From Elusimicrobiota bacterium (GTDB taxonomy: Bacteria; Elusimicrobiota; Elusimicrobia; UBA1565; UBA9628), in the NCBI GenBank assembly GCA_016207605.1, contig JACQPJ010000035.1, positions 11,345 through 75,344 on the forward strand: DNA of 64,000 nt, in the 5' to 3' direction. Made by a program: the position numbers and the translations under genes. A model generated the notes under the pieces. It made no database searches. It worked only from the letters and a program-made list of their open reading frames with translations, and had not been told where the DNA came from. Positions 29,936-37,920 of this stretch are shown in pieces (within the stretch, counting starts at the first letter, position 1; each line of letters starts with the position of its first letter).

Positions 29936-31741
<1,806 letters not shown>

Positions 31742-31834: not shown

Positions 31835-32479
31835 GTGGAAGCCCCGGAACCGGAGCGGGCATATGATAATATCGCCTTCACATCCGCTATGACCCTGGAA
31901 TTAATCCCGGAACATCTCCGTAAGCTCTACGAGGTTCACGAATGGAAGCATGCCTGCGCCATTCTGAAGAACGATTTCCTGTCGGAGTGGAATGACATCC
32001 TTGAGGTGCTTGCCGCCTTCCGGCTCCACAAGACGGACATCAAGACGCCCGGCGGCGGGAAATCTCCGATCTCCAATAAGCTGGATGGGGAGTTTCTCAG
32101 GCGGGGCTGGATTGAAAAGGCCTTCGACACGAAAGTCGTCGTCGACAAAAAAGCCCGCGAAAATCCTGCGCATAAAATCGACTGCTACAAGAACCAGATC
32201 GCCTTGGAAATCGAATGGAACAACAAGGATCCATTCTATGATCGCGATTTGAACAATTTCCGTATTCTCTTCGAACTTCGGGCCATCAGCGTCGGTGTCA
32301 TCGTCACGCGCTGCGATGCGCTTCAAGGCATTTTTGATCGCCTAGGCAAGGGCGATTCCTACGGAAACTCAACCACGCACATGAGCAAATTGCTGCCTCG
32401 CATCGAGGGCGGCGGAGGCGGCGGATGCCCCATCGTGGTGTTCGGAATCACGGACAAGCTGTATCTGGACGGCAAATGA
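31835..32479 (+). CDS. Type II restriction endonuclease, BamHI/BglII-like fold
   Basis: KIDCYKNQIALEIEWNN gives the D-x8-E-x-E catalytic spacing seen in BamHI/BglII (DIDFGKRDTLVEVQF). ATGA overlap with the downstream methyltransferase. Confidence 0.6.
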   Translation: MEAPEPERAYDNIAFTSAMTLELIPEHLRKLYEVHEWKHACAILKNDFLSEWNDILEVLAAFRLHKTDIKTPGGGKSPISNKLDGEFLRRGWIEKAFDTKVVVDKKARENPAHKIDCYKNQIALEIEWNNKDPFYDRDLNNFRILFELRAISVGVIVTRCDALQGIFDRLGKGDSYGNSTTHMSKLLPRIEGGGGGGCPIVVFGITDKLYLDGK

Positions 32480-33225
32480 ACGCGCGTCGAAAAGCCGGCT
32501 CAACGCATTCCATCGTTGCCGAGGATCTTCTCTCCCTTGGGATGGAGAAATTCGGCACCATTCTCGCCGACCCGCCTTGGCAGTTCGCCAACCGCACCGG
32601 AAAGATGGCTCCCGAGCACAAGCGCCTCTCCCGCTACTCAACCATGACCCACCAAGAGATCATGGAGCTCCCCATCCCGCAAATGGCCCTGCCCAAGTGC
32701 CACCTGTATTTGTGGGTCCCCAACGCCCTCATCCTCGAAGGCCTGGAAGTCATGCGCCGCTGGGGCTTCCAGTATAAGACGAACATCGTCTGGTACAAAA
32801 TCCGGAAGGACGGCGGTCCCGACGGCCGCGGAGTCGGCTTCTACTTTCGCAACGTCACGGAGCTCATCCTTTTCGGCGTGCGCGGCTCCATGCGCACGTT
32901 GAATCCGGGCCGCACCCAAGTCAACCTTCTCAGCACCCGCAAGCGCGAACACTCCCGCAAGCCCGATGAGCTCTACGACATCATCGAGCGCTGCAGCCCC
33001 GGCCCCTACCTGGAACTATTCGCCCGCCATTCCCGCCCCAAATGGTCCCAATGGGGCAACGAGATCGGCACCGACGCCGTCCGCCAGCCCTACGCCAGCA
33101 CGTATTCACGGCCTATGTCGCAGGAGATTCTTCTCTTGGATAAGGCCAATGGCGACCATTGCAACGGTGGCGGGCATGGGGTTATCCAGGCGCGCCGCAA
33201 GTTGGTGGGAGCCGCCTCGAAGTAG
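32476..33225 (+). CDS. MT-A70 family DNA methyltransferase (DPPW motif)
   Basis: ILADPPWQF, LYLWVPN, NIVWYK, FGVRG, HSRKPDELYDIIE. Confidence 0.85.
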   Translation: MNARRKAGSTHSIVAEDLLSLGMEKFGTILADPPWQFANRTGKMAPEHKRLSRYSTMTHQEIMELPIPQMALPKCHLYLWVPNALILEGLEVMRRWGFQYKTNIVWYKIRKDGGPDGRGVGFYFRNVTELILFGVRGSMRTLNPGRTQVNLLSTRKREHSRKPDELYDIIERCSPGPYLELFARHSRPKWSQWGNEIGTDAVRQPYASTYSRPMSQEILLLDKANGDHCNGGGHGVIQARRKLVGAASK

Positions 33226-33249
33226 AATAGGAATGTTCAGCTTCGAGTC

Positions 33250-33738
33250 TTAGATGTTCGCTGGAGGCGGAAACATCTGCCGCATAGCACTAGACGCAGT
33301 GTCTCTTATTTCATTCGCAAGACTCGTCAGATCTGTGATGCTGAACTCTTCGAATCCATGGTGCAATCCCTTCTTCTGTTTAGCGGTTGTCTTTATTCGG
33401 AAGAGTTTTGGAGCGGCCTCAGCTTTCCTGTCCATCGACCAAAGTGAGTGTGTAACCAAATTTCTACGCATCTCAAGATTCTCGCATTTTAGAATGAGTG
33501 CATCCAGGGACGTTGGTTTAATATGCGGAGGTACGGCCGGCAGTTTATTCCAGTGCTTCACTAAGGAGCTAAGCAATTTCAATTTCTGACGGAACGACTG
33601 TTCGGATGTAACCATTAGGCCGACGTCTATATGAACTTTCATGAGCTCGATAATGATTATCCCGATATAGAAATCGAGGCTCGCGAAATTTGTGGTGACG
33701 CGGCCAACCTCCTTTAAAACTTCATCGCTCAGTGCCAT
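33250..33738 (-). CDS. Hypothetical all-helical protein with HEPN-like R-N-x3-H motif
   Basis: 162-aa ORF, among the longest in the A+T-rich segment. ENLEMRRNLVTHSLW fits the HEPN Rx4-6H signature. Confidence 0.5.
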   Translation of the reverse strand: MALSDEVLKEVGRVTTNFASLDFYIGIIIIELMKVHIDVGLMVTSEQSFRQKLKLLSSLVKHWNKLPAVPPHIKPTSLDALILKCENLEMRRNLVTHSLWSMDRKAEAAPKLFRIKTTAKQKKGLHHGFEEFSITDLTSLANEIRDTASSAMRQMFPPPANI

Positions 33739-33829
33739 GCATATCTCTTATGGCCATCTCAGCCGCCGCAACTTCAATTCTCCATCCAGGACTTATCCCT
33801 CTTCGCAAAAGGCTCTTAAAACGAGCCTT

Positions 33830-34459
33830 TTATTGATCTGTTTGCGGATCGCCTGGAAAAGCTATTTCGTGACGAGTCCGTTTCCCAATGGCATCCCGTC
33901 GGGCTCTTTCTTTTATGATGCTGATAGATGGTTTGAAAGAGAATTGCTCCATTGTGCAAGTTGGCGTTGGGCACTGCGCCCACTCTTCCGATGCAGTATA
34001 AGTTTTTGGAAGTTCAAGCAATGGAGCCTCACATTTTGGACAGCGAGGGTCGCCAAGTTGAATATATCTATTCCCCTGTTGATCGGCATACAAAACCGGG
34101 ATCCACTCAGCAGGTTCATGAAAAAATTTTGGCCCCGGAAACATTTTGGGGTATTCATCTAATGAAGGACATTTATGCTTTCGTAGTTTCCTCAGTTCCA
34201 TATCTTGCCGCCACGCAATTACTAACAGCGTTATGGTGGATACTACGATTACCAGAACGGCAAAAAGAGAAATACGAGCCCATGTCGCGTTTAGCGGCAT
34301 GGGAGTTTGGGGGCTATTCCATGCTGCTATGATTATACGTTTTAGTACTGGCAAAAGAGCGAGTGCTGCCGTGCCCCATGCTGCTGATACTAACGAGTTC
34401 CATCCGCCTTCTACTACAGAGCCGATTAGCCAGGAGCCCTTTTTCTTTATTGTCATCAC
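33830..34459 (-). CDS. Hypothetical 2-TM protein with C-terminal zinc-ribbon-like domain
   Basis: 209 aa. Hydrophobic helices LVSAAWGTAALALLPVL and ISLFAVLVIVVSTITLLVIAW, plus CPKC...CPTPTC. Confidence 0.5.
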   Translation of the reverse strand: MMTIKKKGSWLIGSVVEGGWNSLVSAAWGTAALALLPVLKRIIIAAWNSPQTPMPLNATWARISLFAVLVIVVSTITLLVIAWRQDMELRKLRKHKCPSLDEYPKMFPGPKFFHEPAEWIPVLYADQQGNRYIQLGDPRCPKCEAPLLELPKTYTASEEWAQCPTPTCTMEQFSFKPSISIIKERARRDAIGKRTRHEIAFPGDPQTDQ

Positions 34460-34575
34460 GAGATTCTACAAATCCACTCAGCAAGGTGTAATACAAAGTG
34501 AAGCCCTTTGGTAGACCCATATTGGAGGGCTGGACTTTGCCGCCCGTCTTTAAGGTGGAGCTCTCCTCCTTTTGA

Positions 34576-36423
34576 CTATTTCGGGCGGCGTTTAAACGCC
34601 AGCTTTTTGCGGGGGAATTTGCGGCGGGCGGTGTCTTGGAGGGCTAAGCGCTTGGCGAGGGCGGTGTTGGCGGCGATTTGGAGTTGGACGGAGGGGTTGT
34701 GGGGGGAGAGGGCTTGGGCGCGGGAGGCGAGGCGGCGGGCTTGGAGGAGGTCGCCGGAGGCGCGGGAGGCTTGGGTCCAGGCGATGAGGTTTTGGAGGTC
34801 GAGGGGGGTTAGGGCGTTTTGGAGTTCGCGCTCTTGGGCGGCGGCGGGCCAGTCTTGGAGGGCGGCGTAGGCTTGGGCGCGGTGGGCGTGGAGGGCGGGG
34901 AAGCCGGGGGAGACGCGCTCAAGGCGGGCGTAGGCGGCGAGGGCTTCTTGGGGTTTGTTTTGGTCGAAGAGGATTTGGCCGCGCAGGTCCAGGGCGGCGG
35001 GGTAGGCGGCGCTGCCGGGCCAGACGCGGGTGGCTTGGGCGAGGGCGCTGCCCAAGTCGCCGGCGCGGGCCGCGGCCAGGGCTTGGCCGTAGCGGACGTC
35101 GGAGACAAGCCAGAGGCCGGGCGCGGCGGCCAGGAGGGCGATGAGGGCGAGGGCGGGGGCGCGCAGGCGGCAGCGGGTCGCCTCATCGAAAGGCAAGGGG
35201 AGGGCGAGGACGGCGGCGCGGGGCTGGGCGAGGCTTCCCATGCCGGCGGCAATACCGGCGGCGGCCCAGGCCAGCCAGGCGCCCGCGCCGGAGGGCGGGG
35301 TGAGGCCCAGCGCGCGGGAGAGGGCCCAGGCCGAGAAGGCGGCGGCGAAGGCGGCGGCGTAGCCGGCCTCGGCCAAGGCGCCGCGGCGGCGCAGGCTCCA
35401 GGCCGCGCCGAAGCCGCAGGCGGCGGCGGCCAGGGCGGTCCAGGCGAGCAGGACGAGGCTTGCAGGATTCAGGGTGGAGCTTTGCAGGAGCGCGTCTTGC
35501 GCCTGGGGGGCGGCGATGGCGGCCAGGGCCGCGCTGGCGAGGGCGAGCAGCGCGGCGCGGCGGGCGGCTTGGCCGCGCAGGATCGCGGTGCTGGCGGCGG
35601 CGAAGAGTACGGCCGAGAGGGCGAAGGCGGCCAGGCCGGCGCCGCTGCGCGCGGCGAGCAAGGCGAGGGCGGCGGCGGCCGCGGCGGAGAGCAGGCGGCT
35701 TGCGCGCGAGGCTTCCGGGTCCAATTGGGCGGCGAGGGCGATGGGAAGTGCTGCGGCCGCGAAAGAGGGGAACGGTTCTTTTATGAGCGCGGCCGCGGGC
35801 AGGGCCGCGGCGGCGGTCCAAAAAGACAGGCGGGCGGCGGAGCGCGCGCCGCCGAACTCCAGGAGCGCGGCGGCGTAGACGACGCCGGCCGACAGGGCCG
35901 GGACCAGGTCGGGCAGCAGGGCTGTTTTTGAAGGCGCGGCGGCGAAGCGCGCCAGCGTCCAGGCGGCCAGCGCCAGCAGGGGGAGCAGCGCCGCTTTGGC
36001 GGCGGCGGGGGCCTCCCAACGCCCGCGCTCCAGTCCCTTGAGCAGCCAGGCGGCGGCCAGGGCCAGGGCGCAGATCTCCAGGAGCGCGGCGTCGGGCGCG
36101 GCGGGGGCGAAGGCGCGCACGGCGGCCAGCAGGGGCGCCAGGAAGACGAGGGCGAGCAGGGCCTTCTCGCCGAGGGACGGCCGGTCGAAGCCTTGGGCGG
36201 GGGCCGGCACGGGCGTTGGGGCGGCGGCCTTGGCGGCGGCGAGGAGTTTTTCTTTTAGGGAGTCCGGAGCGCGCGGGGCGGGCGCGGGGGCCGGCGCGGG
36301 CTTGGCGAGGGCGCGGCAGTTCGGGCAGGCGGCGAGATGCGCCTGCGCGGCCTTCCTGAGGCTTGGCGAGAGGCGGTTTTCTGCGTGCAAATCTTGGACG
36401 TTGATGAAGGCATGGCAGTTCAT
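34576..36423 (-). CDS. Anti-sigma factor (zf-HC2) fused to polytopic Ala/Leu-rich membrane domain and C-terminal TPR repeats
   Basis: ATGA overlap with the sigma gene. The N-terminus MNCHAF...H-x3-C-x2-C (HLAACPNC) is followed by many hydrophobic segments and a TPR-like C-terminus. The track ORF extension to 36768 is rejected. Confidence 0.7.
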   Translation of the reverse strand: MNCHAFINVQDLHAENRLSPSLRKAAQAHLAACPNCRALAKPAPAPAPAPRAPDSLKEKLLAAAKAAAPTPVPAPAQGFDRPSLGEKALLALVFLAPLLAAVRAFAPAAPDAALLEICALALAAAWLLKGLERGRWEAPAAAKAALLPLLALAAWTLARFAAAPSKTALLPDLVPALSAGVVYAAALLEFGGARSAARLSFWTAAAALPAAALIKEPFPSFAAAALPIALAAQLDPEASRASRLLSAAAAAALALLAARSGAGLAAFALSAVLFAAASTAILRGQAARRAALLALASAALAAIAAPQAQDALLQSSTLNPASLVLLAWTALAAAACGFGAAWSLRRRGALAEAGYAAAFAAAFSAWALSRALGLTPPSGAGAWLAWAAAGIAAGMGSLAQPRAAVLALPLPFDEATRCRLRAPALALIALLAAAPGLWLVSDVRYGQALAAARAGDLGSALAQATRVWPGSAAYPAALDLRGQILFDQNKPQEALAAYARLERVSPGFPALHAHRAQAYAALQDWPAAAQERELQNALTPLDLQNLIAWTQASRASGDLLQARRLASRAQALSPHNPSVQLQIAANTALAKRLALQDTARRKFPRKKLAFKRRPK

Positions 36424-36935
36424 GAGAGCAGCTCCTTGAGTCGTCCCCGTCCGCGGTGCAGCCTGACGTCCAGCGCCGAGAGCGAGCAGCCCAGCGCGGC
36501 GGCGGCGTCCTCGCGCGGGGAGCCTTCCAGGTCCACCATCGCCACGGCCAGGCGCAGGGGCGGGCTTAGGCGGGCGAGCGCGCATTGCACGCGGTCGGCG
36601 TCTTCGCCCTGCTCGGCGCGGCGCTCGGGGCCGGGGGCGGCGTCGGCCAGGGCGTCCTCCAGGGAGCCGGCGTCCTCGCCGTCCCTGGCGGAGAGCGGGA
36701 CCGAGCGGCGCGCGGCTTCCTTGCGCAGGGAGCTCAGGTAGACGTTGCGCAGGATTTGGCTCAGCCACGCCTCGAAAGGCAGGCCGGGGTCGTAGGTCGC
36801 GAAGTATTTCATGGCGCGCAGGAACGCCTCCTGGACGACGTCGCCCGCGTCCGCCGGGCTGCCGGTCAGGCGCAGGGCCACGGCGTAGGCCTTGTCGGCG
36901 TGCAGGGCGATCAGGCGGTCGAGCTCGACGTCCAC
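36420..36935 (-). CDS. ECF (sigma-70 family group 4) RNA polymerase sigma factor
   Basis: Region 2: DAGDVVQEAFLRAMKYF...FEAWLSQILRNV. Region 4: LRLAVAMVDLEGSPREDAAAALGCSLSALDVRLHRGR. Confidence 0.85.
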   Translation of the reverse strand: MDVELDRLIALHADKAYAVALRLTGSPADAGDVVQEAFLRAMKYFATYDPGLPFEAWLSQILRNVYLSSLRKEAARRSVPLSARDGEDAGSLEDALADAAPGPERRAEQGEDADRVQCALARLSPPLRLAVAMVDLEGSPREDAAAALGCSLSALDVRLHRGRGRLKELLS

Positions 36936-37047
36936 CGTGTCTCTTATACCTGGGAGGGGGCCGGAAACTTACAGTCCGGGGGCCCCGGATTATAACAAGG
37001 AGCCCCCCGCGTGCGGCGGGGGACTCCCGGTTGTCTGATCGCCGCGT

Positions 37048-37920
37048 CTACTGCAGGCTGGCCTTCTTCTCGGAAAGGAGGCCGCGAAGGCTCTCCAAGC
37101 CACCCGTCAACTCGGCGACGAGCACCGGCTCCTTCTCCACTTGGAGGCGTCCGGCCAGCAGAGCCTCGCCCTGCGCGGCGTCTATGACCTTGGCGAGAGC
37201 CGCTTTTCTCACGGCGACGGCCGCCAGGCGGCGGGTCTGCGCGTCGGGGCTCTCCAAGCCCTTGCGCAAGTGTTCGATCCTCGCCAGGCGGGGGCGCGCC
37301 GCCATCGCCGCCAGGCCGCGGCGAAACTGAGCGTTATCGGCCGTTTTCATATGCGCGTTAAGGAGCGGCGCGCTGATCCAGGGCAACTTGGCGTTGGACT
37401 CCAGGAGCCCGGCCTGCTCCAGGTTCTCCAAGATGAGGCCCAAGACGTCCGGGTCCTTGTAGTCCTGCAGAGCGACGGCGCAGCCGGCGATGAGCCGGGC
37501 GTTGTCGGTGGACTTGAGCAGGGTCGTGATGGCGTCGCGCGCCTTGAGGCCGCCGGCGCGGCGGAGGGCCTGGGGAAGGAGCGCATCGGGGATCATCCCC
37601 TTGTCGGCGAGCTCCAGCACTTTCGCGTACACCTCCGGGCCGCGCGCGCCGCCCGTGCCCAGGCGGGCGAGAATCTCCTCGCGCAATTCGCTCGGGCCCT
37701 CCTCGAGAATCCGCAGGACGTCGGCCTTGTCCCGCGGCGCGGGCGCCTTGGCGACGGGATCGGGCGCCGAGACGGGCGAGGCTTCGGCGGCGGGCAGGAG
37801 CTTCCCGGTTTTGACCGGGTCCGGCGTTTGCGCCAGCCGACTCAGTTCCAGGTACTTATGGCCGGCTCCTGCGGCGGCGACGACCGCGACGATTCCCGCG
37901 GCGGCTTTGAGGCGATTCAT
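37048..37920 (-). CDS. Hypothetical exported/anchored helical-repeat (HEAT-like) protein
   Basis: 290 aa. N-terminal hydrophobic anchor, then repetitive helical segments. First gene of the sigma/anti-sigma operon. Confidence 0.5.
   Translation of the reverse strand: MNRLKAAAGIVAVVAAAGAGHKYLELSRLAQTPDPVKTGKLLPAAEASPVSAPDPVAKAPAPRDKADVLRILEEGPSELREEILARLGTGGARGPEVYAKVLELADKGMIPDALLPQALRRAGGLKARDAITTLLKSTDNARLIAGCAVALQDYKDPDVLGLILENLEQAGLLESNAKLPWISAPLLNAHMKTADNAQFRRGLAAMAARPRLARIEHLRKGLESPDAQTRRLAAVAVRKAALAKVIDAAQGEALLAGRLQVEKEPVLVAELTGGLESLRGLLSEKKASLQ

Follow-up and report, generated by a model that had tools for sequence, protein, structure and literature searches.

Do two adjacent genes in a small A+T-rich islet beside a restriction-modification (R-M) system form one defence module, or do they act independently of each other? 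The question was raised by the analysed window, a stretch of 64,000 nucleotides from an Elusimicrobiota bacterium, in which the islet (33226..34575, 46% G+C) extends from the stop codon of an MT-A70 methylase gene to the stop codon of an anti-sigma gene. As the initial annotation had noted, the islet carries two minus-strand open reading frames (33250-33738 and 33830-34459) separated by 91 nt, and it contains exactly these two genes. One encodes a 162-aa HEPN-like protein (P0001, 33250..33738, minus strand); the other, upstream of it, encodes a 208-aa membrane zinc-ribbon protein (P0003, 33830..34456, minus strand; hereafter TM-ZnR), for which an alternative GTG start at 34459 would give 209 aa, the database form starting at the ATG at 34456. 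From these features a compact membrane-sensor plus RNase system, either a defence or a toxin-antitoxin pair, had been proposed.

The composition profile bore out the abrupt change to A+T-rich DNA between the R-M pair and the anti-sigma gene: G+C was 44-49% across 33250-34450, compared with 61-66% for the methylase gene on one side and 70-80% for the anti-sigma gene on the other. With 46.4% G+C against 68.6% for the genome (background of 1.44 Mb on 60 contigs), the islet is matched by only 0.15% of the 1.21-kb windows of that genome, and the GC3 values of its two genes (53% and 39%) lie far from those of the flanking host genes (83-92%), supporting foreign DNA. No islet-like DNA was found among 30 same-genus genomes, and the islet was not found among 400 genomes of the phylum. 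The insert is flanked here by the ABC-F gene and the sigma/anti-sigma operon, which are not adjacent to each other in relatives, and therefore no empty site could be defined. Neither convincing flanking repeats (att) nor mobility genes were found around the islet, no attC-type site was present on either strand of 33100-34700, and an Rfam scan of the islet and the related loci gave no match. Since the two genes share the strand, the 91-nt spacing and the extreme composition, they probably arrived together. Horizontal acquisition of the islet, jointly with the reading of two independent genes developed below, is in our judgement the most likely explanation, held at slightly better than even confidence.

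The 162-aa protein proved to be a member of a large unannotated family. P0001 itself had no match in Pfam, NCBIfam, PADLOC or PHROGs, a word-indexed search with it returned one relative only, and tblastn searches of cultured phages and plasmids with P0001 and with the family consensus gave no match. An exhaustive HMMER search with a two-sequence profile recovered 962 cluster representatives at E<=1e-3 (263 at E<=1e-10), and nearly all family members are 150-200 aa long. A profile search of the named collection found 63 proteins, all of them 'hypothetical' or unnamed and none with a Pfam domain. The R-N-x3-H form of the HEPN signature, to which the initial annotation had drawn attention, was present within the segment ENLEMRRNLVTHSLW (Rx4H motif R92-N93-L-V-T-H97, codons at 33448..33465, minus strand), and an alignment of 189 relatives showed its residues to be near-invariant: R92 in 188, N93 in 185, H97 in all 189 and the following S98 in 188. 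W100 was conserved in 168 of the 189, giving an active-site-type motif of the form E-x2-R-N-x3-H-S-x-W. Beyond this motif the family has a signature of its own, a basic sheet with the pattern R-x-K-x-T-A-K-x-K-K-G (R114 in 184/189, K116 in 188/189, G124 in 184/189), and a conserved N-terminal helix, IGR-x3-NF-x3-E (G12 in 187/189, E/D22 in 183/189). S48 (175/189) and F49 (183/189) were also conserved, as were, to a lesser degree, E46 (145/189, 77%) and R/K50 (135/189, 71%), which together make up an E-x3-[KR] motif at the start of the helix of residues 49-64. Single members carry extra N-terminal parts, a Cys-rich module in P0041 and a transmembrane (TM) helix in P0132.

To what extent this family is HEPN was judged from a structural model and from profile comparisons. 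An AlphaFold2 model built on a 61-sequence alignment reached pLDDT 93 and pTM 0.85, with all five models at 91.5 or above; it replaced a first model from a 2-sequence alignment (pLDDT 74), with which the Foldseek result was meaningless. The modelled protein has helices at residues 5-33, 37-45, 49-64, 75-96 and 134-155 and strands at 99-103, 111-120 and 124-132, so that the earlier description of it as all-helical has to be abandoned. The RNxxxH motif lies at the C-terminal end of the third long helix (75-96) and is followed by the basic three-stranded sheet, a family-specific insert (codons 99-132 at 33343..33444, minus strand) on whose basic face R114, K116, T118, K120 and G124 are conserved. 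The HEPN core has been described as a four-helix up-down bundle with the motif at the end of helix-3, a polar residue after its R, and a second acidic residue, in Ex3[KR], in helix-2 (Anantharaman et al. 2013, PMC3710099). R92-N93-L-V-T-H97 accords with the spacing Rx4-6H and with a polar residue (N/D/H) after R, the order of helix 75-96, strands 99-132 and helix 134-155 accords with the position of the motif, and E46-x3-R50 accords with Ex3[KR] in helix-2.

In a Pfam scan of 60 members HEPN_Cthe2314 was the commonest match (8/60, best E 0.005), and among 77 more distant members, none of them in the first set, it again came first (6/77, best E 1.9e-4), in both cases below threshold; it was the only Pfam family recurring across both sets (14/137). 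HEPN_RiboL-PSP appeared in two members and Csm6_HEPN in one of the 77-member set, likewise below threshold, and none of the 137 members scanned reached the Pfam threshold of any HEPN model. The family consensus matched no HEPN model in Pfam and returned coiled-coil noise only. Alignment with 11 AbiU2 sequences by hhalign brought only E-x2-RN into register with the AbiU2 RN motif (P 0.28), and the 400 genomes of the phylum held no HEPN_Cthe2314 members above the cut-off for a profile-profile test. Sequence searches of the PDB with profiles A1, A3 and A5 gave noise only. Foldseek with the pLDDT-93 model found no relative in the PDB (best E 0.3, TM<0.26) and, in BFVD, one unnamed phage protein only (E 2.7e-4, TM 0.60). 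Thus the part of the earlier HEPN-like assignment that concerns the motif, its conservation and its position stands, but profile and structure searches did not confirm the fold. Because the Pfam matches are sub-threshold and Foldseek returned no match in the PDB, we regard HEPN as probable rather than shown: we take membership of the superfamily to be a good deal likelier than not, and the family probably represents a new, so far unannotated clade of HEPN-type RNases.

The closest known counterparts are the solitary HEPN proteins of abortive infection and defence (AbiU2, PF18734; Cthe_2314-like, PF18730; AbiD/F; AbiJ; AbiV). Like these, the 162-aa protein is small and stand-alone, with Rx4H at the end of helix 3, N after R and Ex3[KR] in helix 2, and HEPN_Cthe2314 is the only recurrent weak Pfam match of its family. 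The two also resemble each other in their mobile and defence contexts and in their occurrence as single-gene integron cassettes (Esos and V. mimicus HNPBCG_15845 among the solitary HEPN proteins). The 162-aa family differs in falling below the threshold of every HEPN model, in having no structural match in the PDB, in the basic three-stranded sheet that separates the motif from the last helix, and in the conserved N-terminal IGR-x3-NF-x3-E helix. Strands directly after the motif recall Csx1, in which a beta-hairpin directly follows Rx4-6H (PMC3710099), but the 162-aa protein has neither a CARF domain nor a CRISPR context, and no sequence or Foldseek similarity to Csx1 was detectable.

Ten other genomic contexts of the HEPN-like family were examined. 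The gene for the closest homologue of P0001 (46% identity, L001) overlaps a downstream lipoprotein gene by ATGA. Elsewhere the HEPN-like gene is cargo of a Tn7-like element, adjoining Ros/MucR (L014); shares an island with an OLD-family nuclease and DUF6602 (L016); follows a peptidase gene (L018), a Sel1-repeat protein gene near an N6_N4 methylase (L021) or an SMC-like ATPase gene with HicAB nearby (L022); stands between an ABC ATPase and an acetyltransferase (L020) or between housekeeping genes (L055, L056); or is found near HicA (L057). At L016, homologous GCCTAAC...GTTAGGC sites with paired ends follow each of the genes for DUF6602, an 86-aa membrane protein and the HEPN-like protein, and at L022 a 66-nt site of the GCCTAAC...GTTAGGC form comes after the HEPN-like gene. 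The sites at these two loci are of attC type, so that the HEPN-like gene travels there as a single-gene integron cassette, which argues for a solo function. Single HEPN cassettes have been reported to protect against phages, as in Esos (10.1101/2024.07.02.601686), and the same has been reported for an AbiU2-domain cassette of V. mimicus and for a small transmembrane cassette protein (bioRxiv 10.64898/2026.03.17.712381).

The TM-ZnR protein matched nothing in Pfam, NCBIfam, PADLOC or PHROG. The two hydrophobic helices and the zinc ribbon ascribed to it were recognised again, one hydrophobic segment being strong (residues ~60-82, Kyte-Doolittle values up to 2.9) and the other weaker (~20-47, 1.4-1.6); the codons of both lie at 34211..34399 (minus strand). 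Hydropathy and charge counts, with basic residues before TM1 and after TM2 (positive-inside rule), predict an N-in/C-in topology with the C-terminal 126 residues in the cytoplasm. The CPKC...CPTPTC pattern provides the four cysteines of a C4 zinc ribbon (C139-x2-C142...C162-x4-C167), which is followed by a conserved KE-ARRDAIG helix (33956..34042, minus strand; alignments A2 and A5). C139, C142 and C162 are invariant in six of six family members compared, and the fourth Cys moves by 1-2 positions; the two conserved Cys knuckles, about 20 residues apart, identify a zinc ribbon at the level of sequence. Zinc-ribbon matches in Pfam were confined to weak ones in a TM-ZnR paralogue, none of them above threshold. 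A sigma-70-like promoter match, ATTACA-18-TAGAAT (34463..34492, minus strand), ends 7 nt before the ATG; the consensus scan found this one site against 1.6 expected in shuffled sequences, and hence the match is no evidence alone. An anti-sigma role of the ZAS type, considered on account of the anti-sigma gene next door, was rejected, since homology is lacking, the genes differ in composition and the TM-ZnR relatives have no sigma-factor neighbour.

The TM-ZnR family is very rare. Its known relatives are the metagenomic P0004 and P0005 (43-46% identity) and the protein at locus L038, together with three paralogues in one same-family genome (G090, Elusimicrobia MAG UBA9628); no others were found in 400 genomes of the phylum, the GTDB species genomes, the JGI metagenomes or IMG/VR. 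The family is linked to phages and cassettes: two of the three UBA9628 copies are on IMG/VR viral contigs, one adjoining RecT and a nuclease and the other between a prohead protease and a DNA methylase.

If the islet encoded a two-gene system, the two families would be expected to occur together in different genomes. They did so in none of the ten other HEPN-like contexts, where a TM-ZnR relative was absent throughout. Conversely, no HEPN gene was found downstream of the closest TM-ZnR relatives (L002, L038) or as a neighbour at L008/L023 and L013, and a comparison across loci showed the neighbours of the different TM-ZnR copies to be mutually unrelated. The one further adjacency is in a UBA9628 prophage (L012/L024), where a 158-aa TM-ZnR paralogue is encoded 120 nt upstream of an AbiU2 HEPN gene whose product passes the Pfam threshold (E 1.8e-9, 37.8 bits). 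There the TM-ZnR gene is followed on its 3' side by a 105-nt GCTTAAC...GTTAGGC hairpin (-56 kcal/mol), and the AbiU2 gene by an RYYYAAC...GTTRRRY site, the weaker of the two, with its ends unpaired in the predicted fold. Since the TM-ZnR and AbiU2 genes have separate attC-type sites, their adjacency at L012 is best read as cassette stacking; among the 11 AbiU2 loci in the class, only that at L012 has a TM-ZnR neighbour. In the islet itself, folding of the spacer RNA revealed a terminator-like hairpin, AAAAGGCUC-7 nt-GAGCCUUUU (33807..33831, minus strand), which begins inside the TM-ZnR stop codon and has a weak U tract; a consensus terminator scan did not call it. The compact membrane-sensor plus RNase or toxin-antitoxin system is thus not supported. 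The initial annotation had itself held that failure of the two genes to co-occur elsewhere would speak against it, and this is essentially the situation encountered, the only other TM-ZnR/HEPN adjacency consisting of two attC-bounded cassettes. We therefore favour, with a little more belief than doubt, two accessory functions that are independent of each other, each supplied by a single gene and both most likely directed against phages. The main product of the locus is then the HEPN-like family, not the pair: about 960 representatives with a near-invariant HEPN-type motif, unannotated in Pfam, NCBIfam, PADLOC and PHROGs, and mobile as single-gene integron cassettes and Tn7-like cargo. A caution also follows, in that a zinc-ribbon or membrane gene adjoining a HEPN gene may reflect cassette stacking and no functional coupling.

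A real two-component abortive-infection module, in which TM-ZnR would detect at the inner membrane either the entry of a phage or one of its proteins and, by way of its cytoplasmic zinc ribbon, release or activate the HEPN-like RNase, or in a variant serve as its antitoxin or tether, seems to us unlikely. The same strand, the 91-nt gap, the shared atypical G+C and an islet of exactly two genes agree with it, as do the TM-ZnR paralogue directly upstream of the bona fide AbiU2 gene in the prophage and the presence of P0041, with its Cys-rich N-terminus, and P0132, with its N-terminal TM helix, within the HEPN-like family. Moreover, the literature lists a HEPN domain in fusion with two TMs and a zinc ribbon (Plim_2023), as well as one fused only to a zinc ribbon (Npun_R5629) (Anantharaman et al. 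2013, PMC3710099). By their published description these fusions resemble the islet in combining two TMs, a zinc ribbon and the HEPN motif, but here the parts are split between two genes that are not conserved as a pair, and the fused HEPN domains belong to the Swt1-like group. Against a module stand the finding of the pair nowhere else, the lack of a downstream HEPN gene in the closest TM-ZnR relatives, the two separate attC sites at the AbiU2 adjacency, the relatives of both genes known as single-gene cassettes, the terminator-like hairpin between the two genes and their unequal GC3 (39% vs 53%). The islet likewise resembles HEPN-MNT toxin-antitoxin systems (type II/VII) in placing a small HEPN-type putative toxin next to another small gene, but the neighbour is a membrane protein with no nucleotidyltransferase domain according to Pfam, NCBIfam and PADLOC, and neither the gene order nor the 91-nt gap, with its hairpin, resembles that of tightly coupled toxin-antitoxin operons. 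Coupling also agrees with the observation that each TM-ZnR gene examined adjoins a different, possibly effector-like gene, encoding a HEPN protein of one of two types or one of three membrane proteins unrelated to each other. The same observation would suit a modular two-gene defence system in which TM-ZnR is the constant sensor or adaptor and the partner (HEPN-like, AbiU2 or an unrelated membrane protein) is swappable. In that case the 162-aa family would be a HEPN clade that had so far escaped recognition, one that has a beta-sheet insert for RNA binding and can be connected to sensors of this kind; we hold this to be rather unlikely.

On the preferred reading of two independent genes, the 162-aa protein would act as follows. 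[quoted passage not shown] On the model of solitary HEPN proteins of abortive infection, the protein may dimerise and stay inactive until a phage cue, upon which the dimer would cut RNA without metal and the infected cell would be arrested. TM-ZnR, whose C4 zinc ribbon would project from the inner membrane into the cytoplasm, would probably work solo at the membrane, for example in superinfection exclusion. Should the HEPN-like family prove to cleave RNA and to block phages, the known defence families would gain a compact single-gene member, and defence-finder tools a structurally unusual HEPN variant bearing a basic beta-sheet insert. Both genes could instead be non-defence passengers of a decayed mobile element, the 162-aa protein being a non-catalytic helical protein of a nucleic-acid-binding or regulatory kind whose R/N/H/S motif has another role and TM-ZnR a phage moron acting in lysis, lysogeny or the envelope. 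The lack of a significant match to any HEPN model or structure and of any PADLOC or PHROG match, and the several HEPN-like members between housekeeping genes with no defence genes nearby, are consistent with such passengers. We nevertheless consider them improbable: the almost invariant R, N, H and S, which match HEPN exactly in both spacing and position, argue for catalysis, HEPN families are the only recurrent weak matches, and other members reside in an integron array beside an OLD-family nuclease, as Tn7-like cargo, by HicAB and near methylases.

The remaining alternative concerns the R-M genes that adjoin the islet (31835..33225, plus strand). Their earlier identification as an R-M system was confirmed: the endonuclease is of the BglII type (PF09195, E 6.5e-45) and the methylase is an MT-A70 protein (Pfam, E 1.9e-33; PADLOC MTase_II, E 3e-91), and the two make up a Type II pair that lies outside the islet. 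The HEPN-like gene is convergent with the MT-A70 gene, their stop codons being 24 nt apart, combinations of HEPN and R-M are a recurrent theme (PMC3710099), and one HEPN-like relative lies near an N6_N4 methylase. The HEPN-like protein might accordingly be tied to the R-M system as a second line resembling PrrC and RloC, which would fire once a phage disables restriction. We regard this as very unlikely. As in the anticodon nucleases PrrC and RloC, a candidate nuclease with a HEPN motif adjoins R-M genes, but the 162-aa protein has no ATPase or sensor domain like theirs, and the R-M system here is Type II, not Type I. Most members of the HEPN-like family have no R-M neighbour, and the R-M genes differ from the islet in composition (54-61% vs 46% G+C). 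Homologues of the R-M pair, with 69-76% identity, occur in three of the 30 same-genus genomes, where they lie on other contigs and without the islet.

The R-M pair and the adjoining A+T-rich islet are flanked in the window by an ABC-F gene (29936-31741) and by a sigma/anti-sigma/HEAT operon (34576-37920). Since these two flanking loci are widely separated in complete or near-complete genomes of the same genus (e.g. G406 and G327), the insert, consisting of the R-M pair and the islet, is located at a synteny break. Elsewhere in the source genome, only two loci matched the low G+C content of the islet, one on contig C55 (about 15.6-17.8 kb) and the other on contig C45 (about 45-48 kb), both with 41-47% G+C in 1.2-kb windows; these are probably further foreign inserts. 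Within the islet, at 34456-34492, the sole sigma-70-like match 5' of the gene for the membrane zinc-ribbon protein (TM-ZnR) ends 7 nt ahead of the ATG. A real promoter at this position would give an mRNA with no leader or almost none.

Relatives of both islet genes were found in cassette-like settings. In locus L012 (G090:C15, IMG/VR UViG_3300009031_000648), a TM-ZnR paralogue gene and the AbiU2 HEPN gene downstream of it are each followed on the 3' side by an attC-type site (RYYYAAC...GTTRRRY; 1776-1880 and 2476-2589), the first of which forms a 105-nt hairpin (-56 kcal/mol). The two genes lie within a prophage of the Elusimicrobia MAG UBA9628, with a prohead protease on one side and a DNA methylase on the other, and this phage genome therefore hosts integron-style cassettes. 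An integron-like array of three cassettes (L016 4384-6700; ENA ERZ27276616 k141_4889503), encoding DUF6602, an 86-aa membrane protein and a HEPN-like protein and divided by homologous GCCTAACC...CGTTAGGC sites, is situated immediately 3' of genes for an OLD-family (AAA_15/21 + TOPRIM) nuclease and an RHS protein.

In locus L001 (564-1166), the nearest homologue of the 162-aa HEPN-like protein, P0002 (46% identity), is encoded by a gene with an ATGA overlap with the downstream gene for a 200-aa lipoprotein (signal peptide and Cys); this neighbour is membrane-associated, of another kind. Among other members of the HEPN-like family, P0132 has the domain fused to an N-terminal TM helix, P0041 is extended at its N-terminus by a Cys-rich stretch (C-x2-C ... 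C ... C-x-C), and P0057 and P0062 have an additional N-terminal domain of about 100 aa. In another AbiU2 locus (L040 604-1419; G399:C17), a gene for a 271-aa protein stands ahead of the AbiU2 gene. This protein bears an R-D-x3-H motif of its own (WRDYAAHG), and the arrangement is possibly the one that Anantharaman et al. 2013 (PMC3710099) list as 'Bxe_C0808 in operon with AbiU2'.
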